Both the position numbers and the translations under genes were made by a program. The notes below the pieces were generated by a model, which had not been told where the DNA came from, ran no database searches, and was given only the letters and a program-made list of their open reading frames with translations. From NCBI GenBank assembly GCA_965205945.1, contig CBDBIB010000002.1:128001-192000 (forward strand): a stretch of 64,000 nucleotides of DNA, read 5' to 3'. Position 1 is the stretch's first letter. Each line of letters starts with the position of its first letter. The stretch comes from Bdellovibrionales bacterium. Lineage in GTDB: Bacteria; Bdellovibrionota; Bdellovibrionia; Bdellovibrionales; UBA1609. Below, one piece after another: positions 16,995 to 51,600 of the stretch.

Positions 16995-17609
16995 TTAAAA
17001 TTTATTTTTTGCTTCTGGTATAAGCTTTTTTAAAAGCTGTCTTACTGCATTTCCTCTATGTGAAATAGCATTTTTTTCATAAGGGGTAAGTTCAGCCATA
17101 GTTTTATTCATGCCTTGGGGAATAAATAAAGAATCATAGCCAAAACCGCCTTTTGCATTTGAAGGGATAGGGGCAATACTTCCTTTACACTCTCCTATTA
17201 TTTCAAATTTTTGATCATTTGGACCTAAAGCAATAATCTGGCAAACGTAGCGAGCGCTTCGGTCTAAAGTTTTTTTAAAATTTAGCATTTTATAAAGTTT
17301 GTCGTTATTTTGGCGATCAATAGCTGTGGGGCCTGCATATCTTGCAGAGTGAACTCCTGGAAGATTATTTAAAGCCGTAACCTGAATTCCAGAATCTTCA
17401 GCAATAACCCAGTCAGGACCAGTTATAAAAGGGCGAAATGACTTAGCCTTAAGGAGAGCATTTTCTAAAAAAGTGGATCCTGTTTCTTTTGGAGCTTTGT
17501 AAAATTCAATTTCTTTTGCTGATTTAATAGTAAAGTTAGTGTTTTTAAAAAGACTTTGAAAATCTTTAAGTTTATTTTGGTTAAAAGATGCAATCCATAA
17601 ATTAGGCAA
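16995..17609 (-). CDS. rdgB: Non-canonical purine NTP pyrophosphatase (HAM1)
   Basis: ETGSTFLENA, EDSG, PGVHSARYAG, GFGYD, SHRGNA. Confidence 0.95.
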   Translation of the reverse strand: MPNLWIASFNQNKLKDFQSLFKNTNFTIKSAKEIEFYKAPKETGSTFLENALLKAKSFRPFITGPDWVIAEDSGIQVTALNNLPGVHSARYAGPTAIDRQNNDKLYKMLNFKKTLDRSARYVCQIIALGPNDQKFEIIGECKGSIAPIPSNAKGGFGYDSLFIPQGMNKTMAELTPYEKNAISHRGNAVRQLLKKLIPEAKNKF

Positions 17610-18330
17610 GAAGAGTCTCCCATCCTAGAGCTTGTTTTTGTGCTTTAAATAAAACTTGAGAGGCTTTTTGAGTATTTTTAATAAGACTAAGAAGTTGTTT
17701 AAGATCAAAAGCAGTTTTTTCTGCAGTTCCTTGAATTTCAATAAACTGTTGTTTGTTATTTATTACAAGGTTCACATCAGAATCACAGCTAGAGTCTTCC
17801 TCATAATCTAAATCAACTAAAAGTTCACCGTTTACATAGCCTGAAGAAAGGCCCACAATTTGAAACATTAAAGGGTTTTTTTTAATCTGTCCTTGGAGTT
17901 TTAAGAATTCAAAAGCTCTAGCAAGGGCAACAAATCCACCAGTTATAGAAGCTGTTCGTGTTCCACCGTCTGCTTGTAAAACATCACAGTCGATAATAAT
18001 AGATTTTTCAGCAAAGGCTTTCATGTCAACACAGGCCCTAAGTGACCTTCCAATAAGTCTTGAGATTTCCTGAGATCTTCCCCCTGAAAAAGCCTTTTCT
18101 CTTCTTATACGAGTATGTGTTGAACGAGGAAGCATTGAATATTCAACAGTAATCCAACCCTCATTGCTACCTTGCAGCCACCTTGGAACATTATCTTCAA
18201 CGGTAGCAGTACAAAGAACTCTGGTTTTTCCAAAAGAAACAATACAACTTCCTTCAGCATATTCAATTGGATCCATCTTAAAATTTACAGGACGCATGGA
18301 AAGATTTTCTCGATTGTTTTTTCTTATCAT
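17602..18330 (-). CDS. rph: Ribonuclease PH
   Basis: EYSMLPRST, EISRLIGRSLR, QADGGTRTASITG, EIQGTAE. Confidence 0.97.
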   Translation of the reverse strand: MIRKNNRENLSMRPVNFKMDPIEYAEGSCIVSFGKTRVLCTATVEDNVPRWLQGSNEGWITVEYSMLPRSTHTRIRREKAFSGGRSQEISRLIGRSLRACVDMKAFAEKSIIIDCDVLQADGGTRTASITGGFVALARAFEFLKLQGQIKKNPLMFQIVGLSSGYVNGELLVDLDYEEDSSCDSDVNLVINNKQQFIEIQGTAEKTAFDLKQLLSLIKNTQKASQVLFKAQKQALGWETLLA

Positions 18331-18658
18331 ATATAGTTTGTTGCATCAATAAAGTGGTTTGTCTAGAGTAGTAAGAAATATGTATTTTTTTAAATTATTG
18401 AAATAAAAAAAATATTTAATTTAAAGAAAAATAAAAAAAATGGTCTGGAAAAAGAGAAAAAAGTGGTCTTTAAAATGGAAGTAAAGACACAAAGGTAAAG
18501 AGTTAAAAAGATTTTGTATCTATCTAAAAATATTGACTTTTTCTTTTTTTAAAAGTAATTTTTAAAGAAAATCTAATTTGAGTAAAAATTATATGATTAA
18601 GGTTTTAAAAACTTATAAGAAGGTGGTATATTTTAGAATAAAATATTAAGGAGAATAC

Positions 18659-19720
18659 ATGTCTGAAGTTCAAAGTTCTAATTTAGTTAAAGGAAAGTAT
18701 TGGATCACGGGTGCTGGGGTTCAATCTGCAAGTTTAGCTATATTAGCTGTAATAGGAATTGCGTTTGCCCTGTCAGTAACAAAAAGTATCATGATTCCTT
18801 TTGTATTAAGTTTATTTTTATATTTTATTTTATCTCCAGTTAGAACTTTTTTTATTCAAAAAATGAAATTTCCAGAATGGCTGGCCCTAATCTCAACTTT
18901 TGCAGTAGTAGCGTTACTTTTAACGCTTGTGTTTTTTATTCTTTTTTCAGCTTTTCAAGAATTTGCCATGGGCTATGGAGTTTATGAAGCTAAAGCTGTT
19001 TACTTTATAGACTCTATGCAGGAGTTTTTGATAAATAAAGGGGTGCCTATTGAGCATATTGATTTTGCAATAATGCTAAAAAACTTACCTCTTACACAAC
19101 TTGCTAAAGGTGCTGGAGCTAGTGTGTTGAATTTAGTTTCTACAACAATTCTAGTTTTTATATTTTTTATATTTTTATTTACGGGTGGATCTAAAGTAAA
19201 AAAAGTCACTAAGAAAAAAACAGGATTGAGTGCTGAGGTTAATGCACAAATTCGTAAATACTTAACGATAAAAGTTTTAACTTCGTTTGTAACCTCGACT
19301 ATTATTTTTGTAATTTTCACTATATTTGATTTGGATTTAGCATTTGTTTTTGCTTTTTTAGTTTTTATATTAAATTTTATTCCTACAGTGGGATCATTTT
19401 TTGCAACGATACTGCCATTTCCGGTGGCTTTTTTCCAATTCGAATCAACGATGCCAATAGTCTTAGTTTTGGTTATTCCAGGAATTATTCAGTTTATTAT
19501 TGGTAGTATTTTAGAACCAAGAGCTATGGGACAGAGTTTAAATATTCATCCTGTAGTAGTATTGATGTCTTTAATGTTTTGGGGGCTTATTTGGGGAATT
19601 GTAGGTGCTTTTTTAGCTGTGCCTATAACTGTTGTAATTAAAATAGGAATACATAAAATTGAGGGTGGAAAGTTTATAGCTAAAGCGATATCAGGCAGTT
19701 TTAATGATTTAGAAGTGTAG
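18659..19720 (+). CDS. AI-2E family transporter
   Basis: NFIPTVGS, LEPRAMG.SLNIHP, WGIVGAFLAVP. Confidence 0.9.
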   Translation: MSEVQSSNLVKGKYWITGAGVQSASLAILAVIGIAFALSVTKSIMIPFVLSLFLYFILSPVRTFFIQKMKFPEWLALISTFAVVALLLTLVFFILFSAFQEFAMGYGVYEAKAVYFIDSMQEFLINKGVPIEHIDFAIMLKNLPLTQLAKGAGASVLNLVSTTILVFIFFIFLFTGGSKVKKVTKKKTGLSAEVNAQIRKYLTIKVLTSFVTSTIIFVIFTIFDLDLAFVFAFLVFILNFIPTVGSFFATILPFPVAFFQFESTMPIVLVLVIPGIIQFIIGSILEPRAMGQSLNIHPVVVLMSLMFWGLIWGIVGAFLAVPITVVIKIGIHKIEGGKFIAKAISGSFNDLEV

Positions 19721-19940: not shown

Positions 19941-21245
19941 TTAAATTAATACACTAACAATACAGGCTGTGATATAAGCTGCAAAAGTACCTGCTAAAAC
20001 AGCCTTTAAACCAAGTTTAGCAAGTTCTTCTGAGCGGTTAGGGGCTAAAGCTCCAATTCCACCAATTTGAATTCCTATGGAGCTAAAGTTTGCAAAGCCA
20101 CAAAGAGCGTAAGAAAGAATAAGCACAGAACGCTCTGATAAAGTATCTAAATTCTTACTTAAATCTATATAGGCTATAAATTCATTAAGAATTAGTTTTT
20201 TTGCTAAAAGTGAAGCTGAGAGCCATGCATCTTGAAAAGGAATTCCTAAGAGTAGACTAAAAGGATAAAAGACCCAGGAGAAAATAACGGAAAAAGTTAA
20301 AAGAGGTTTTCCTTGAGTATAAAGACTTGGATGAACTAAGTTTTCTCCCCAATAGCTAAACCAAAAGATATTTTCAGCACTTATAGAAAGTATAAAATCA
20401 AAAAAAGCCATTAAAGCAATAAAAGCTAAAAGCATAGCTCCAACGTTTAAGGCAAGTTTAAGCCCTTGAGTTGTTCCCTTAGAGCAGGCATCAATAAAGT
20501 TAGAGTATTCTGATTTTAAAAACTGAGAGGGAACTCCACCTGCTGTTTCCGGGGTAGTAGTTTCAGGAATAAGAATTTTAGCGCAAATAAAAGAGGCTGG
20601 AGCAGAAAGAATACTTGCCGTTAATAAGTGTCCACCAATTGTGGGGATAGCATCTTTTAAAAGGCCAATATATGCAGCCATGACAGCTCCTGCCACAGTA
20701 GCCATCCCTCCAACCATAAGACAAAAAAGTTCAGAATGAGTCATTTTTTTTAAAAAAGGCCTTATAATTAAAGGAGCCTCGGTTTGTCCTACAAAAATAT
20801 TAGCGCTTGCAGCTAAAGATTCAACACCACTAATTTTAAAAATTTTTGTAAAGACTATAGAAAAAGCATAAACAACAATTGGAAGAATTCTTAAGTGGTA
20901 AAGAAGAGCCATTAAGCTTGAGAAAAAAACAATAGTGGGGAGAACTTTAAAGGCTATGATAAAACCCCATGTATCAACATCAACTAAAGGGCCAAATAAA
21001 AAAGCACTTCCATGATCTGTAAATTGGAGTATTTTTATAATAGTAATATTAACGTATTCAAACACTAAGCTGCCTAAGCCGGGAATATTTATAGCAGGAA
21101 TTCCTAAAATTAATAATGCTAAGATAAATTGAAACAAGATTCCTGATATTATAAGACGCCAGTTTATTTTCTTTCTATTTTCAGAAAGAAGAACTAAAAT
21201 TCCTAAGAAGATAAATATTCCTATAAGGCCTAGTCCTTGCTTCAT
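19941..21245 (-). CDS. CNT family Na+/H+ nucleoside transporter (NupC/NupX-like)
   Basis: NIFVGQTEAPL, GGMATVAG, YALCGFANFSSIGIQIGG. Confidence 0.93.
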   Translation of the reverse strand: MKQGLGLIGIFIFLGILVLLSENRKKINWRLIISGILFQFILALLILGIPAINIPGLGSLVFEYVNITIIKILQFTDHGSAFLFGPLVDVDTWGFIIAFKVLPTIVFFSSLMALLYHLRILPIVVYAFSIVFTKIFKISGVESLAASANIFVGQTEAPLIIRPFLKKMTHSELFCLMVGGMATVAGAVMAAYIGLLKDAIPTIGGHLLTASILSAPASFICAKILIPETTTPETAGGVPSQFLKSEYSNFIDACSKGTTQGLKLALNVGAMLLAFIALMAFFDFILSISAENIFWFSYWGENLVHPSLYTQGKPLLTFSVIFSWVFYPFSLLLGIPFQDAWLSASLLAKKLILNEFIAYIDLSKNLDTLSERSVLILSYALCGFANFSSIGIQIGGIGALAPNRSEELAKLGLKAVLAGTFAAYITACIVSVLI

Positions 21246-21255
21246 AGCTTTGTGC

Positions 21256-22839
21256 TTAACCTGTTAGGCTTTCTAATAAAGGGCCTGTTATTGTGATTAC
21301 AGCGGAAAGAGGTTTTGCACTTTTTTTCTCAAAAGGCCAGTGACTTGTATATTGCCCAACTTCTTTAGTTTTCTCACCAGGGTGCTGCACGGATAAGAAA
21401 AGAGTTTTTCCATCAGGAGAAAAAAAAGGTCCTGTAAACTCTGCATCAATAGGAGCTGAGGCTATTTTGATGACTTCACCTGCCTGTCTACCTTTTCTAG
21501 GAATAATAAAAAGGCCATTATGACCGAATTCCTTATAGTCAGTATTTCCAATATTTCCACCAGAAATATCGCTAGTTAGCCAAAGATTTCCATTTTTATC
21601 AAATGTTATATTATCAGGGCATGAAAAGTTAGACTTAGTGCCTCCTGCTTTAAAAGTCTTATGTCGAAATTTTAAACTGCCTTTTGTATGCTCTGAAATT
21701 TTTAAAATAGAACCGTGTAAGTTACCCTTGGATTTATTGTTAGTTAAACTAATAAAAACGTCTCCAGAAATAGGGTCAATATCAATATCTTCAGGGCGAT
21801 CAAGAGGTGTTCCATCCACTATTTTTGCTGCTTCTCTAGCTCTAATATAAACAGAAGTTTGGTCTTTAAACTTTTCTTGAAGTCTTTCATCAGAATTTAT
21901 ATCTAGAGATATCCACTTATTTTTTTCTAAGTTGGCAACATATAAGGTTCCCTCTTTTAAAGAATTTTTTTTAGAAGAAATAAACTTGTATAAACACTCA
22001 TTTTCAGAGTCATCACCACTATAAACAACGGGGAAGCCATCTTTTGTTAAAGCGACTGTTGCACATTCATGAGCAAAACGACCTAGAGGGATAATTTTTT
22101 CAGCAGATTTTTTTTTTGGATCTACTTCAACAACCCATCCATAGTTTTCAGGAGGTTGTGGATCTATAGAGGTCCAACCAAAATCTCTTTTATCTTTTTT
22201 TACCCTTCTTTTTCCTGATTTATAATATTTAGCTTCACCATAGAAATGACTATAGTTTTCCTCACAAGTTAAAATTGTGCCCCATGAAGTGTAGCCACCA
22301 GAACAGTTTGCAAGGCTTCCAAGTGCCATATTTTGTCCACGCACCTTATGGCTTAATGGAATTTGTGTAGACCCAGTAATTCTAAAGTTTAGGCTAGAAT
22401 CCTTAATAATACGCCATTTACCGTTTTTATTTTTTTTAACTTCAATAAAGCTTCCTCCAACTTGGTAACGCTCATGTTTTAAAAGTTTTTGTGTGAGCAT
22501 GAACTTTTTATTTCTTCCATGTAAAAGTAAAGGGTTTAAACTTTCATGATTTACCCAAAGGCCAAATTTCCCATGGGGAAAAGAGTAAAGATTTAAATAG
22601 TCATTATTTGTTCCAAAATATGTAAAAGGAGCGATCTTATCACCTTCTTTAATAAGAATTTCATAAGAAAGTCCTTCTGCTAGGTTTACTTTGTCTTGGG
22701 CTGTATTAAGATTAAGCCCGTTTATTTGTAAGTTTTCTTTTCTTCTAAGTTGTAAACAGCTAGGTATAATAGAAAGAGTAGAAGTTGCTCCTATAAATTT
22801 AAGAAAGTTTCGTCTAGACCAGATCATAAAAAGCTCCAA
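21256..22839 (-). CDS. phoX: PhoX-family alkaline phosphatase with Tat signal
   Basis: SRRNFLK Tat motif; NCSGG.T.WGT.LTCEEN, GRFAHE, DRPED, CPDN, AEFTGP, SVQHPGE. Confidence 0.9.
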   Translation of the reverse strand: MELFMIWSRRNFLKFIGATSTLSIIPSCLQLRRKENLQINGLNLNTAQDKVNLAEGLSYEILIKEGDKIAPFTYFGTNNDYLNLYSFPHGKFGLWVNHESLNPLLLHGRNKKFMLTQKLLKHERYQVGGSFIEVKKNKNGKWRIIKDSSLNFRITGSTQIPLSHKVRGQNMALGSLANCSGGYTSWGTILTCEENYSHFYGEAKYYKSGKRRVKKDKRDFGWTSIDPQPPENYGWVVEVDPKKKSAEKIIPLGRFAHECATVALTKDGFPVVYSGDDSENECLYKFISSKKNSLKEGTLYVANLEKNKWISLDINSDERLQEKFKDQTSVYIRAREAAKIVDGTPLDRPEDIDIDPISGDVFISLTNNKSKGNLHGSILKISEHTKGSLKFRHKTFKAGGTKSNFSCPDNITFDKNGNLWLTSDISGGNIGNTDYKEFGHNGLFIIPRKGRQAGEVIKIASAPIDAEFTGPFFSPDGKTLFLSVQHPGEKTKEVGQYTSHWPFEKKSAKPLSAVITITGPLLESLTG

Positions 22840-22967
22840 GCTTAAGGGGTAAGTGTATATTTAAGTGAAGATTTCAAAAAAAACCCATTTTTGTCACCTT
22901 AAAAAGACAAAATTTATTAAAAATACTTTTAAATAAGTTCAAAGCTAAGATATTTAGCCTTAAAACA

Positions 22968-22983
22968 TGGCAAACTCTTTGCT
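22968..22983 (+). promoter_or_regulatory. Sigma54 (-24/-12) promoter
   Basis: TGGCAAACTCTTTGCT has exact GG-N10-GC spacing. Palindrome TTTTGTC-N10-GACAAAA at 22889-22912 could be an upstream activator site. Confidence 0.7.
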
Positions 22984-22993
22984 ATATACTTAA

Positions 22994-23096
22994 TACTTAT
23001 TTAGACTCTTCCCCCCTTTTGTTTGAATAAGTGTAGGTGGAGCTATCCTATTTTTCTCCTCCTTACAAGTCGGCTGTTAAAAGCCGGCTTTTTTTT
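22994..23096 (+). ncRNA. Candidate ~100-nt small RNA with three hairpins
   Basis: Starts ~12 nt after the sigma54 GC. 14-bp stem with C-rich loop, a second GGAG/CUCC stem, then an intrinsic terminator; no ORF. Confidence 0.65.
23067..23096 (+). terminator. Rho-independent terminator
   Basis: AAGTCGGCT-gttaaa-AGCCGGCTT followed by a T run. Confidence 0.8.
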
Positions 23097-23474
23097 AATG
23101 AGATTTTACTAATTATGGTGGTACACACAGAAAGGTATAATATTGTGCCTTTTTTATTTCTAAAATAATAAGACACTATCTAATGCTTTTAATACTGAGC
23201 TTGAATATGCAAGTAATAAAGGTGGTGTAGCTTTTACAATATAGTTAGAGCGTATAATTTTTATTTACGAAAATATAATACTAAGAGTCTATTAAGAAAC
23301 AACTAAGTAACCCAAAATAAGTACTATCAACCAGCGTTTAGAAGAAAAGTTTATAAAAGTATTAATGCTGTGCTTATTATCTTAAGACAGAGCAGCTGTA
23401 GTTTTTTCACTTAAAAACCAACCCAGTTGTTGCTTTTCCTTTTTAGCAAATACTTTTAAAAGTTTTATAAAATT

Positions 23475-25018: not shown

Positions 25019-26431
25019 ATGAATAATTTTCCATTTAAGCTTTGGTATAGAATGACAGGCTGCTTTATACTTATGTCTATAGGCTTACATTTTTTATTTA
25101 ATGTTGTTCTAGATTTTATGAGGTTAACTCTTTTAGGGTTAGATTATTTGATTTTTTCTTTGGTTTCTTCTTTGATTTTTTCTTTGATCTGTTTTTCTTT
25201 ATTTTCGTTATATGCTATTCGTCCTTTAAATGAAGCTATTAAGTATTTAAAATTGTTGCTTAATCAACCTAAAACAGAAAATATTAGGGTTTCTAAGGGG
25301 GAATTTTTAAAAATTTTTAAATATGCTAAATGGAGAGAACTAGGGGAACTGGTTAAAAAGGTTGAAAGAAAATTACGTAGAAGAACAAAAGCCTTGTTGA
25401 GGGAAAAAACTGAATTAAGTGCTGTGATGAATTCTTTAGATTCGCCAACTATTTCAATTACTACTCAAATGGAGGTGGCGTTTTTAAATTCAGCTTTTGC
25501 AGTTTTATTTGAGATTTCTAATACTACCCTTAATCTTACTAAAGGTGCAAAAAAATTATCTAAGGTAATTAAAGAAGAAAAAATTAGGAATGTTTTAGAA
25601 CATGCTATTAAAAACAACGATTTTGAAAAAAAAATGGTTAGATTTGTATTAGGAGAACGTAAGAGGATTTTCTCTATTTTAATGTCACCTTTAAGAAGAG
25701 GAATCGACAATTCACTTTATGGTTTAGTGGCTTCATTTACTGATGAGACAGTAAAAATTGAGTTAGATCAAAAAAGAATAGCATTTGTAGCAAATGCGTC
25801 TCATGAATTAAGAACTCCAATTGCAGCCATCGCTACTTCTATAAGTCTTCTTAATAAAGTAAAGGACCTAGAAACTAAAGACCAAATTTTAGAGTCATTA
25901 AGTTTAAATTCAGATCGATTAGTCAGTCTTGCACAAGATTTATTAGATTTATCAAAACTTGAAGATGAAGGGGAAGCATTTAAAGTAGGAGAGCTTTATT
26001 TAAAAGATATAACCCTAGAGGTTTTAAGAGAGCTTATACATCCTAGGAAAGATTTAATTAAGGTTATATATTCTGTAGAGTATGGTTGTTTTGATGGAAG
26101 TAAGGTTAAGCAAGTTTTAACAAATCTTTTAAGAAATGCGTTGATTCATACTCCAGATGAAACAAAAGTTGAGGTTAAGTGGTATATGTCAGGTAAAGGT
26201 GAGCTATGTATTCAGGTTAAAGATTGGGGTACAGGCATTCCAGAAGTAGAGCAGGGTAGAATTTTTGAGAGATTTTATAGAATTGATAAGAGCCGCTCAA
26301 GAAAAAGTGGAGGCTCAGGAATAGGGCTTTCAATAGTAAAATATATAATGAGGCTTCATAGTGGGGAAGTAAAGTTGCTACCTTATAAACAAGGTAAAGG
26401 CGCTACATTTATTTGTACTTTCCCCCAGTAA
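25019..26431 (+). CDS. Sensor histidine kinase (PhoR-like)
   Basis: FVANASHELRTP H-box; N, G1, F and G2 boxes (RIFERFYRIDKSRSR..GGSGIGLSI); PAS-like region. Confidence 0.9.
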   Translation: MNNFPFKLWYRMTGCFILMSIGLHFLFNVVLDFMRLTLLGLDYLIFSLVSSLIFSLICFSLFSLYAIRPLNEAIKYLKLLLNQPKTENIRVSKGEFLKIFKYAKWRELGELVKKVERKLRRRTKALLREKTELSAVMNSLDSPTISITTQMEVAFLNSAFAVLFEISNTTLNLTKGAKKLSKVIKEEKIRNVLEHAIKNNDFEKKMVRFVLGERKRIFSILMSPLRRGIDNSLYGLVASFTDETVKIELDQKRIAFVANASHELRTPIAAIATSISLLNKVKDLETKDQILESLSLNSDRLVSLAQDLLDLSKLEDEGEAFKVGELYLKDITLEVLRELIHPRKDLIKVIYSVEYGCFDGSKVKQVLTNLLRNALIHTPDETKVEVKWYMSGKGELCIQVKDWGTGIPEVEQGRIFERFYRIDKSRSRKSGGSGIGLSIVKYIMRLHSGEVKLLPYKQGKGATFICTFPQ

Positions 26432-26478
26432 AACTTATATAGATTTAGTAAAAAAATATTTAAAAGTAACTATTTTTT

Positions 26479-27813
26479 TTAAGAACCTATATATTTAAGT
26501 CCAATAGTTGCTAAACTTAGGAATGAAAAGAATGAAAAGATATCTGTAATGGTGATTACAAAAACACCGCTACTTACAGCCGGGTCTTTTCCTAAGTTTT
26601 TTAAAATAATTGGAATAGTGGCCCCTAAGGTAGCTGCAATAAAAGAGTTGATAATCATTGAAATTCCTAAAACAATTCCAATAACGTATGTGCCCTTCCA
26701 AACATAGACCATAAGAGCTGCAGTAAAGCCTGTTGTGATACCTAAAAAAACACCAACAAGGATTTCCTTTAAAATAGCTTTAGAGTAACTGATGTAATTA
26801 AAATCTCCAGTGGCTAAACCTCTTGTGATAATTGTTAATGTTTGAACAGCAGTATTTCCGCCTAAGGCTGCAGAGATTGGCATTAAAATAGCTAAAAGAG
26901 TAAACTCTGCAAGGCTGGTTTCAAAAAGACTAATAACAAAACTTGCAATCCATGCAAGAAACAAATTAAAGATGAGCCATGGAACTCTATTTAAATAAGA
27001 AAGTTTGGCTTTCATGTTTACAGAGTCCATTTGTTGTAAACCTGCTTGTGCATAAATGTCTGCAGTAGCTTGATCCTCCATCTCATCAATTAAATCATCA
27101 ATAAGAATAATTCCTAAAATTTTAGTATTGTTATCTACAACAGGAAGAGCCACAAAACTTTCTCTTTTAACAATCTTAAGAGCCTGATTTATGTTATCAA
27201 TGGTTGTTACACTTATAACATCTTTATTTACAAGGTGATTCAAAGGTGTATTGTCAGAAGCTGTAGCAAGCTGTTTTAATGAGACCACTCCAATAAGTTT
27301 ATTACTACTTGTTATGCAGTATAAATAATAAATTAGAGATTCGCCGGCTTTTTTTTGAATAAGTTTAAGGGCTTTCTGGGCCGTAATGTCTACGGAGAGA
27401 GTGAAAAACTCAGTTTGCATTGCTCTGCCACAAGAGTGTTTAGGGTAGTTTAAATATTGTTTTAATTTTTTTTGCCGTTTAAGTTTTGGGATAATTTCAT
27501 TAGTAAGATCTTCACCAAGAATCTCTAAAAAATATGTGGTGTCATCTAACTCAGTTTGATCTAAGACTTGAATAAGTTCAGAGTCCTTAAGCTTTTTTAA
27601 AATTTCTAAAAGAGTGGCTTCGGGGAGATCTTTAAGGGATTCTAAAAATTGAGGGTGAGTTTTTAAAGATTCAAAACTATTATTAAAAAAATTCTCTGAT
27701 GAAAGCACAATCCATTGCCCAAGTTCTGTGCTGTTTAGTTCTAAAAACTCTTTTGAGTTTGCCGGAGGGGTGTCTAGTTTCTTTTTGAGAGATAAAGTGA
27801 AGTTTTTAAACAT
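26479..27813 (-). CDS. mgtE: Magnesium transporter MgtE
   Basis: CBS pair, R.PWL, GGNTAVQ, DPAVSSG..ITITD. Confidence 0.93.
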   Translation of the reverse strand: MFKNFTLSLKKKLDTPPANSKEFLELNSTELGQWIVLSSENFFNNSFESLKTHPQFLESLKDLPEATLLEILKKLKDSELIQVLDQTELDDTTYFLEILGEDLTNEIIPKLKRQKKLKQYLNYPKHSCGRAMQTEFFTLSVDITAQKALKLIQKKAGESLIYYLYCITSSNKLIGVVSLKQLATASDNTPLNHLVNKDVISVTTIDNINQALKIVKRESFVALPVVDNNTKILGIILIDDLIDEMEDQATADIYAQAGLQQMDSVNMKAKLSYLNRVPWLIFNLFLAWIASFVISLFETSLAEFTLLAILMPISAALGGNTAVQTLTIITRGLATGDFNYISYSKAILKEILVGVFLGITTGFTAALMVYVWKGTYVIGIVLGISMIINSFIAATLGATIPIILKNLGKDPAVSSGVFVITITDIFSFFSFLSLATIGLKYIGS

Positions 27814-48652: not shown

Positions 48653-51600
48653 ATACAATATGTATAGAGTATATGACTTATTAAAAAATTTCATAGAAAT
48701 AGGTGTGAAAGCTCTAACTTTCTTCACAATTTTACTATTAACTCCCCATTCTCTAGCCACCCCAAGTTCTTTTGTTTTTCAAGGTCAAATTGTAAAACCC
48801 AATGGAGACGCTTTAGAAGAAAATAATGTCAGCTTTCTTGTTCAAGTTTTATCCTCCATGGATCATTGTCTTCTTTACGAAGAAAGTTTTAATCTTAATA
48901 TGATAGGATCAAAGGGAGTTTTTAACTTAAACGTTGGGTCTGGAATAAACACAGGAAATGGAGGCTTAACAAATTTATCTAAAGCTTTAGACAATTCTTT
49001 TTTAAACAATAAAAGTCTTAGTTGTGCCTTTGGGTCTTCATACACTCCAACCTTAAACGATACAAGAAGGCTTAGAGTAACTTTTGATCATGGCAGCGGC
49101 CCTCTTACTTTAACAAATGATCATATAATTCACAGTGTGCCCTATGCTCAGTATGCCGGCAAACTTGGTGGAAAAGCTGTTAATGATTTTATTCAAGTAA
49201 GTCGTGGTGTTACTCAAAGCAATTTAGAGACCGTGTTTGATAATGATGCCAATCAAAGGGAGCTTATGGCTTTAATTAATGGCAGCTCTAATCAATACTC
49301 CCCATTAAGCATCAGTGGAGCTAGCTCTTTACCGAGTTTTTCAAGCTCTCATCCACCACCTAATTCTCAGGCAGGAGATATTTGGTATAACTCTACAAAT
49401 AATCAAATCATGTACTACAATGGATCAGCAGCCACTGTTGTTGGTAAAGGTAGTGGAACTGTAACCAGTATTACAGCAGGAAGTGGCTTAAGTGGTGGAA
49501 CCATTACAAACAGTGGTACAATTTTAATTGCACCAGGGGGTGTTTTAAACAGTCATCTTGCAAGTGGTATTCATGCAAATAAAATCACAAGTGGAATTCT
49601 ACCAAGCTCAGTGGTTCCCACAGGAACTGACAATACAAAACTTCCTCTTACAGGAGGGGTTTTATTAGGTGACCTTAACTTTAATAATAATCAGATTCTA
49701 AACACAAGTCATATTATGCAAAACCCAGGAAGTACCATGACCTTAGGTTCTTATACGAATTTAGAAGAAGTTAGTCTTTTAGGGTCTATGAACATGAGCA
49801 ATGCTGGGGCTACTTGGTACAATAGTGACTCTGGAGCGCTTAAGTATTGGAATGGTGTTAGCTTAGAAGTTTTAAGCACCTTAAGTAGTGCATCAAGTGT
49901 TTTAGTCAATGCTCCTTTAACTTCTTCAGGTGGTAGCAACCCAACAATAAGCATCAACCTTGGTAGGGGTTTATACAACAACAGTGGAAACATAGATTTA
50001 GATTTAGATTCTTCTGGGGGTTTAGAGTTTAATATAAATAAATTAAAAGTAAAAGTAGGAAGTGGTTTAAAAATTACGCCAAGGGGTTTAGAAGCAGATA
50101 TAGGAAGTGGTTTAGGACAGCTCATGCAAGTGGACACTCTTCCTGTGTGTACTAGTGGGGAAAAGATTCAACGAAACCCTGGTGCTATAATAAGCTATTC
50201 TTGCGTGGCTGATATTGATACGGACACAGACACAAGTCTTTTAGGAAGCCAGGCTCAAGGGGATCTTACAGGAACCTACCCAAACCCTAGTCTTACACCA
50301 ACGGGTGTAACCCAAGGGGCGTACCCAAAAGTTAGAGTTGATGTTAAAGGAAGAGTGGTTGAGGGTTTAAGTTTATTAAAATCTGATATACCAGATTTAA
50401 ATGGAGAAAAGATCACTTCAGGAATCATTAGCACAGCTAGATTAGATGTTGGCACAGGGAGCAATCAGCTTATTAAGCTTGATAGCTCTTTAAGACTGCC
50501 TGCTGTTGATGGAAGTCGGCTTATAAACTTACCAAGTAGTGCTGATAATATGGGAGATGGTATAGCTCGATTAAATATAAATCTTAACCAAAATTATTTA
50601 AGTGGAGACGGTGATAATGAGGGAATTATTATTGATGCTAGTGGAAGGGTTGGGGTTGGTAAGGCTAGTCCTGAGGCTTTATTAGACGTTGCTGGAACAG
50701 CAAGAATAACACAAATTTGTGATGAAAGAGGAGCAAATTGTAAGGATGTGTCTGAAGGTTGGAGTTTAGCAAGTCTGGCGGCAAACACGGTGACCTACAC
50801 TCCATTTGGAAACATTCAGGCTACAGATGTAGAAGGTGCACTTAATGAACTTGAATCTAGAAAAGCTCCAATAACTAGAACTATTAGAACGGCTTTAAAC
50901 AGTGGATTAAGTGGAGGCGGAGATTTATCAACTGATAGAAGTTTAAGTGTAGACATTAACAAAACTACAGAAAAAACTACGGCTGATTCTTTAGACAGTG
51001 TTTTAATGTATGATGTTTCTCAAAGTGGTCTTAAAAAAATAACACATTCAAACTTTTTAAACGGTTATTTAAAAGCTTCTTTAGGCACAAGTCGAGGCAA
51101 CGCAATGGATGCTGGTGGGGTGCCTAGTTGTGAAGCCAATGAAAAACTTCAAATGAGTGAAGGTCCTATTTATTTATGGTCATGTGTGACAGACACAAGT
51201 CTTTTAGGAAGCCAGGCTCAAGGGGATCTTACAGGAACCTACCCAAACCCTAGTCTTACACCAACGGGTGTAACCCAAGGGGCGTACCCAAAAGTTAGAG
51301 TTGATGTTAAAGGAAGAGTGGTTGAGGGTTTAAGTTTATTAAAATCTGATATACCAGATTTAAATGGAGAAAAGATCACTTCAGGAACCATTAGCACAGC
51401 TAGATTAGATGTTGGCACAGGGAGCAATCAGCTTATTAAGCTTGATAGCTCTTTAAGACTGCCTGCTGTTGATGGAAGTCGGCTTATAAACTTACCAAGC
51501 AGTGCTGATAATATGGGAGATAGTATAGCTCGATTAAATATAAGTCTTAATCAAAATTATTTAAGTGGAGACGGTGATAATGAGGGAATTATTATTGATG

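Follow-up and report, generated by a model that had tools for sequence, protein, structure and literature searches.

The window (that is, the whole 64,000-nucleotide stretch of DNA analyzed here) belongs to a genome of 1.87 Mb, 32.5% GC and 97.3% completeness, which we call G000. On its minus strand lie phoX (21256–22839) and nupC (19941–21245). Farther out on the same side are an AI-2E-family gene (18659–19720) and rph (17605–18330); on the other side come pdxJ, a pair of PhoB/PhoR-like genes (below the NCBIfam cut-offs) and mgtE. Between phoX and the convergent pdxJ, on the plus strand and hence divergent from phoX–nupC (as a first-pass annotation of this DNA had described it), there very probably lies an independent gene whose product would be a small RNA of about 100 nt; it is predicted to occupy positions 22994–23097. 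What are the parts of this gene, and what might its RNA do? We take these two questions one at a time.

Going from left to right, the first part is a dyad, TTTGTC-N10-GACAAA (22890–22911), read in the sequence and presumed to be the site at which an activator (an enhancer-binding protein) would bind; it stands at −104 to −83 relative to a start predicted at about 22994. The second is a sigma-54 promoter on the plus strand, TGGCAA-ACTCT-TTGCT (22968–22983), recognized by reading and by pattern match alike, whose sequence TGGCAAACTCTTTGCT sets the −24 GG and the −12 GC 10 bases apart, as does the consensus TGGCAC-N5-TTGCW. The transcript (about 101–104 nt if the promoter fixes its start and the terminator its end) would open with stem-loop 1 (22993–23034), in which 14 pairs, G-U pairs included, join 22993–23006 to 23021–23034 and present a 14-nt loop, UCUUCCCCCCUUUU, written TCTTCCCCCCTTTT in the window at 23007–23020; this is C-rich motif 1, the presumed seed, with CCCCCC at 23011–23016. 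Stem-loop 2 (23035–23064), which like the first was found in both the sequence and the fold, is imperfect: AGGUGGAG faces CUCCUCCU, with AGGTGGAG (23035–23042) and CTCCTCCT (23057–23064) pairing at seven of eight positions around one central U-U mismatch. C-rich motif 2, CUCCUCCUUAC (23056–23066), is complementary to Shine-Dalgarno sequences of the AAGGAGGAG type, and behind it comes an intrinsic terminator (23067–23097), a 9-bp stem at 23067–23090 with a T-run (a U-run in the RNA) directly after it.

In proposing a promoter at 22968–22983, a palindrome some 80–105 bp upstream of the predicted start, a 14-bp stem with G-U pairs beneath a C-rich loop, and a terminator following a second stem, the first-pass annotation proved accurate, with one qualification: the second stem is there in the window, in the imperfect form just given, but it is not conserved, and the region folds differently in relatives. 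The local enrichment in GC that it had noticed is also real (0.39 for the RNA vs. 0.21–0.27 for the flanking spacers). Matches to the sigma-54 promoter pattern number 13 in the whole 1.87-Mb genome and two in the window, where 0.31 would be expected and where at least two turned up in 5 of 100 shuffles, and the sequence TTGTC-N10-GACAA occurs three times in the genome, the window's copy being the only one beside a sigma-54 promoter. A search of the plus strand gave no sigma-70-like promoter. Two terminator-like sites compare with 0.6 ± 0.8 in shuffles, and the predicted 104-nt RNA folds with −33.4 kcal/mol (z = −5.95), a value equalled by none of 200 shuffles. All told, we are confident, well short of certainty, that the flagged stretch holds a real sigma-54-dependent RNA gene, present in a single copy in its genome.

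Three smaller matters belong here. A small-protein reading of the RNA was tried and set aside, and with it the earlier statement that there is no ORF stands: the RNA has no AUG, and its sole ORF, 43 codons long and opening with GTG, continues straight through the terminator. A reading of the window's dyad as a Pho box was likewise dropped on inspection by eye, the repeat being inverted, not direct. The second exact match to TGGCA-N6-TTGCW in the window (19402–19417, minus strand) falls within the AI-2E-family gene but on the other strand, and is probably due to chance.

A sigma-54 promoter is of use only to a cell that can serve it, and this one can be served, since the genome encodes rpoN (two matches over the cut-off) together with eight sigma-54 activator genes. 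By their Pfam and NCBIfam architectures, the activators are of the generic NtrC type, four with a receiver domain, one with an FHA domain, two with other N-termini and one a broken gene, and none of seven reaches an NCBIfam equivalog cut-off. Which of them would act at the dyad? Orthologues of most are present in all five of the other genomes compared, so phyletic distribution carries no signal, and four of the five genomes taken as “negative” have weak or clear matches to R1 (the model of a sister RNA, described below), which makes them poor negatives for such a comparison. The broken gene (C3:505456–506448 of G000) has one TAA within the domain match and two stops in a longer frame and is likely a pseudogene. 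In a relative, G008, the stretch L299/L279 (C34, about 26300–26700, minus strand) holds a sigma-54 promoter, a hydrophobic small ORF of about 50 codons and a pair of hairpins, each with a C-rich loop; an NtrC-type activator gene converges on this unit, and its 3′ end is overlapped by the final hairpin. The transcript may be a dual-function variant and may offer a lead to the cognate activator; the best match of the convergent activator in G000 is C1:293212–294627, at 52% identity.

The family to which the window's RNA belongs we call type B, and for it we built a covariance model, R3, from nine genes. Across 109 genomes of the bacterial family, R3 scores at least 44 bits (44–74) in 10, namely, all five of the window's genus and all five of a second genus, g20; every other match is at or below 30.7 bits. 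(The window's RNA scores 74.4 bits, its copy being among the training sequences.) A DNA search of 41 genomes gave full-length homologues in the same genus only, at 81% identity in G003 and 75% in G001, and a partial one in G004; a fifth copy, with the promoter TGGCCC...TTGCT, was recognized in G002, and further copies were recognized in g20. The layout found in the window is that of the family: a TGGC-N7-TTGCT promoter, a 5′ hairpin of 10–14 bp with at least five consecutive C in a loop of 11–16 nt, and an intrinsic terminator of its own with no conserved gene downstream.

What do the relatives keep? The first-pass annotation had staked its proposal on conservation of promoter and structure, and both are conserved: TGGC and TTGCT (the −24 and −12 elements) are invariant in the nine aligned genes, each from its own genome and spanning two genera, while the spacer between them varies, and a loop of 11–16 nt with at least five C, together with a terminator, is kept in nine of nine folded copies. 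The dyad TTGTC...GACAA is invariant in G000, G003, G001 and G004, its right arm reading AACAA in G002, and no change is seen among the four aligned sequences in the arms of the dyad, in TGGCAA, in TTTGCT, in the CTC...CCCCCC core of the loop or in CCGGCTTTTTTT of the terminator (invariant in the genus alignment). A C-rich tract also stands at the position of motif 2 in G003, G001, G004 and G002, whereas the second genus lacks it; in G000 and G003, a hairpin takes up part of this motif.

Over the nine genes, 97.4% of the cells in the stem of stem-loop 1 are paired, against 28–48% in slid controls, and none of 500 shuffles reached the observed values. Covariation among homologues within the Bdellovibrionota, to which the first-pass annotation had looked, is indeed present: 10 of the 14 pairs have changes on both sides (i.e., compensatory changes), counted over nine related sequences in an alignment, A6, fitted to the model's own structure, which was used because the MAFFT alignment of this stem is structurally inconsistent. 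In G004, the sequence of the stem is wholly different, yet 12 of 12 pairs form.

Type B has company. A strict pattern, consisting of a sigma-54 promoter with CCCCCC 15–45 nt later, was matched in 141 of 384 genomes of the order, and in none when the pattern was reversed as a control; in the largest genus, it was matched in 40 of 44 genomes, one of them via a different element. In nearly all cases the match is what we call type A, a predicted sister RNA of about 55–60 nt behind a sigma-54 promoter, found in many predatory Bdellovibrio-type bacteria. Its layout is a promoter, about 10 nt, (A/U)UCCCCCC, GCGRCCWGG, a C-rich loop such as CCCCCUCCUUACCCU, CCWGGUCGC and a U-run. Over 42 sequences, pairing in the terminator stem amounts to 96%, and one pair is A-U or U-A in a split of 23 vs. 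19. Among the matches listed for named genomes (the best 80 of 119 stretches), the type A model R1 scores at least 50 bits at 64 loci, 62 of which carry names of the Bdellovibrio lineage (Bdellovibrio bacteriovorus, Bdellovibrio sp., Pseudobdellovibrionaceae, Bdellovibrionales, Oligoflexia and similar) and two of which are generic “Proteobacteria” MAGs; at the remaining 16 (Halomonas and others), R1 scores 17 bits or less. Upstream of type A in Bdellovibrio-type copies there are TGTC/GACA half-sites, and co-oriented downstream neighbors are either an Amidase_3 gene with rph or a gene for a 410-aa protein without a Pfam family.

Other arrangements turned up beside these. The type A RNA of locus L038 has beside it a gene whose protein is matched at nine places in G000, each time with the same 33.5% identity across 182 aa, which suggests that those places (e.g., C2:176663–177193, which is 48663–49193 of the window) would be a multi-copy insertion-sequence transposase. 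Four genomes (G223, G224, G226 and G227, of family f9) have a third form, with a sigma-54 promoter and then ...CCUGCUUGCUAAUUUGAACUCGGACAUCCCUCCCCCC, unlike either type. In three more (loci L067 in G299, L085 in G326 and L050 in G068), a sigma-54 promoter is followed by a 5′ leader in which CCCCC is accompanied by GGGGG or by a Shine-Dalgarno sequence with a G-run ahead of the start codon, as in AAGGGGGAAC...ATG of L067; such leaders may be anti-Shine-Dalgarno hairpins built into sigma-54-dependent mRNAs.

Types A and B are predicted to be paralogues, that is, a two-type family spanning the Bdellovibrionales, a relationship that the first-pass annotation had missed. They share a sigma-54 promoter, then at least five C, and a second motif of the CUCCUUAC type, which is part of motif 2 in the window and is also present in the loop of many type A RNAs. 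They differ in that type A has its first C-run single stranded at the 5′ end and its second in the terminator loop, whereas in the window's RNA, a long hairpin at the 5′ end holds motif 1, and the terminator is separate. Against R1, the window's RNA scores 15.6 bits (E = 1.87), and the locus has no type A core motif, lacking the 5′ C-run followed by a GCGRCCWGG...CCWGGYCGC terminator hairpin with its C-rich loop.

Within the window's genus, type A is intact in G001, G002 and G004 (R1 scores of 46–51 bits) and in neither G000 nor G003. In G002 and G004, the two types stand 5–7.5 kb apart, around the cluster of phoX, nupC, AI-2E and rph. The window has in this place a relic of type A (18433–18488, minus strand, between rph and the AI-2E-family gene), which can be aligned with the copies still intact in G001, G002 and G004 and has lost its C-runs and its terminator stem; G003 shows the same decay. 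With type A gone, type B is the sole intact sigma-54 C-rich RNA of the window's genome. The surviving copies of the genus (L104 in G001, L111:10045–10125 in G002 and L110:10137–10222 in G004) have no TGGCA-N6-TTGC upstream, and the −24 element is not recognizable; type A of this genus has either changed its type of promoter or consists of genes in the course of being lost.

Two related, structurally supported RNA families are thereby defined, and both are absent from Rfam 15 (4227 families), in which neither type has a match, the window having been searched at the gathering score and four loci at E values up to 1; the one match in those four loci is the unrelated STnc430, elsewhere in L038. 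The window's RNA is thus as free of annotation as had been claimed, and none of the Rfam covariance models for Qrr, 6C, sX13, RsaE/RoxS or Pxr matches it. Full-text searches on Bdellovibrio small RNAs, on sigma-54 and on C-rich small RNAs gave no description of either type. The excerpts of PMC3627812 that bear on the matter describe eight attack-phase small RNAs of B. bacteriovorus, tie none of them to sigma-54 and make no mention of type A, and in excerpts of PMC3818213, the RNA at the matched locus differs from types A and B.

There are, all the same, systems to which the window's RNA can be likened. Nearest in its control is Qrr1–5 of Vibrio, with which it would share control by an activator and a sigma-54 promoter (here, with a candidate activator site upstream), an RNA of about 100 nt ended by a terminator, and paralogues. 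Qrr requires Hfq, and its activator LuxO presumably binds a site different from the window's dyad. The window's RNA also departs from Qrr in its C-rich seed, and its genome from the Qrr hosts in having no match to Hfq, no Hfq gene having been found in an assembly that is 97.3% complete. (In such a system, the small RNA may be what the activator chiefly serves to control; compare PMC10162802.) Nearest in its loops are the C-rich small RNAs. The 6C RNA of Actinobacteria uses C-rich loops to bind several mRNAs without an RNA chaperone (PMC6486639). It belongs to another phylum and has another architecture. In Xanthomonas (sX13) and in Firmicutes (RsaE/RoxS), exposed C-rich loops pair with G-rich sites near ribosome-binding sites; these RNAs have other promoters and other regulators than the window's RNA and no sequence similarity to it. 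Pxr of Myxococcus, a small RNA from a lineage formerly called “delta-proteobacterial,” is linked to a sigma-54 activator gene; the window's RNA, in contrast, has no activator gene adjacent to it in the window, while the C-rich RNA of its relative G008 converges on one. To our knowledge, 6C is not sigma-54 dependent, and the sigma-54-dependent small RNAs that we know of are few, each of them (Qrr, GlmY/GlmZ and CrcZ) sitting atop a major regulatory decision. Type B would be a new member of two known kinds at once, the sigma-54-dependent small RNA and the small RNA with a C-rich seed.

What, then, could such an RNA do? We propose that an enhancer-binding protein at the dyad (22890–22911) would activate sigma-54 RNA polymerase at 22968–22983; that the transcript would open directly with a long hairpin displaying UCUUCCCCCCUUUU in its loop, bear a second pyrimidine tract, CUCCUCCUUAC, and end at its own terminator; and that it would act in trans and without Hfq, its C-rich tracts pairing with G-rich ribosome-binding regions and so altering the translation or the stability of mRNAs. 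In both types, what is conserved and exposed is C-runs, joined in many copies by the CUCCUUAC tract, and since these are complementary to G-runs and to Shine-Dalgarno sequences of the AAGGAGG type, they favor a base-pairing RNA that needs no chaperone, of the 6C, sX13 or RsaE kind, under transcriptional control like that of Qrr. Action in trans is further argued for by a conserved exposed loop in an RNA with no conserved gene downstream. Taken as a whole, this explanation seems to us the best, with a chance of being right that is somewhat better than even, and we would lean to the same slight degree toward pairing with G-rich ribosome-binding sites as the mode of action.

The search for targets was less rewarding. 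Words of the AAGGAG type predominate upstream of long ORFs in the genome, and G-runs 3–13 nt before ORF starts single out 42 candidate genes, the 20 annotated ones among them having no common theme (metK, glutaminase, a Na:alanine symporter, a PilZ protein, a TolB-like protein, an Nqr subunit, a subtilase and phosphoglucomutase are examples). The GGGG Shine-Dalgarno sequence before the symporter gene is kept in four of six genomes examined, and the G-run of metK in two of the six, G000 and G003 only. Counts of the motifs at gene starts were unremarkable, and duplex folding of the whole RNA against neighboring genes gave only long, loop-ridden and meaningless duplexes.

That the mRNAs predicted as targets are a mixed lot with little conservation counts in favor of another reading, in which the RNA is real but works as a sponge or decoy, titrating a protein, a ribosomal component or a G-rich RNA and leaving the ribosome-binding sites of mRNAs alone. 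The exposed pyrimidine tracts, moreover, are the only strictly conserved parts, and one of these, CUCCUCCUUA, would be similar to the 16S rRNA at its 3′ end and so a presumed mimic of an anti-Shine-Dalgarno sequence; a pattern search of the assembly did not recover that end of the 16S rRNA. Against this, the RNAs have one or two motifs apiece, unlike sponges with their many sites; they lack the GGA repeats that CsrA would call for, though CsrA is present in the genome; and no candidate C-binding protein was identified. We therefore think a sponge unlikely.

The neighborhood suggests a second alternative, action in cis, either as a promoter-proximal leader that is terminated or read through under control or as interference with the divergent promoter of phoX. 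Type B adjoins phoX in four of the five genomes of the genus, and in g20, phoX was found by tblastn within about 1.3 kb at four of five loci; the dyad, moreover, is also within the upstream region of phoX and could serve that gene instead. A co-oriented ORF begins 18–120 nt past the terminator in G001, G002 and G004, and type A likewise has co-oriented genes downstream (the amidase gene with rph, or that for the 410-aa protein). But the downstream ORFs of these other genomes are unrelated, showing no mutual similarity at 1e-10, and pdxJ, which comes next in G000 and G003, is convergent and begins only after 375 nt; the terminator, besides being strong, does not vary, and in a model of this kind the conserved C-rich loop would have nothing to do. 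Action in cis is, to our minds, quite improbable. (The conserved position beside phoX is also what there is to be said for a tie of the RNA to life-cycle stage or nutrient state, as the first-pass annotation had imagined, and we regard that tie as not supported.) As to an element without function, whether a chance promoter-like sequence beside hairpins or a decaying relic, the decayed type A copy in the same genome does show that such genes can be lost, but with every part conserved across two genera, promoter bases invariant around a variable spacer, a fold at z = −5.95 and above all compensatory changes in 10 of 14 pairs, it can be put aside as most improbable.

Returning to the trans-acting RNA, one can imagine it on a grander scale. 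That is, a dedicated sigma-54 activator, responding to a signal derived from prey, a surface or nutrients, would switch on types A and B as free anti-Shine-Dalgarno sequences and so reprogram translation of the mRNAs with G-runs at their ribosome-binding sites, the whole amounting to an order-wide and Hfq-free master switch, comparable to Qrr, for the predatory life cycle. We offer this as speculation that is rather less likely to be right than wrong by some distance. The small RNAs as such have the merit that they can be put to the test directly at the bench, since type A is present in genomes labelled Bdellovibrio bacteriovorus, a genetically tractable model predator.

A last observation concerns the other sigma-54 promoters of G000. 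Two of the 13 strict ones (C1:283321 and C1:249580, both on the minus strand) stand upstream of genes whose Shine-Dalgarno sequences contain G-runs (AAAGGGGGAAA and AAGGGGA), which raises the idea that the C-rich RNA might act on other members of the sigma-54 regulon.
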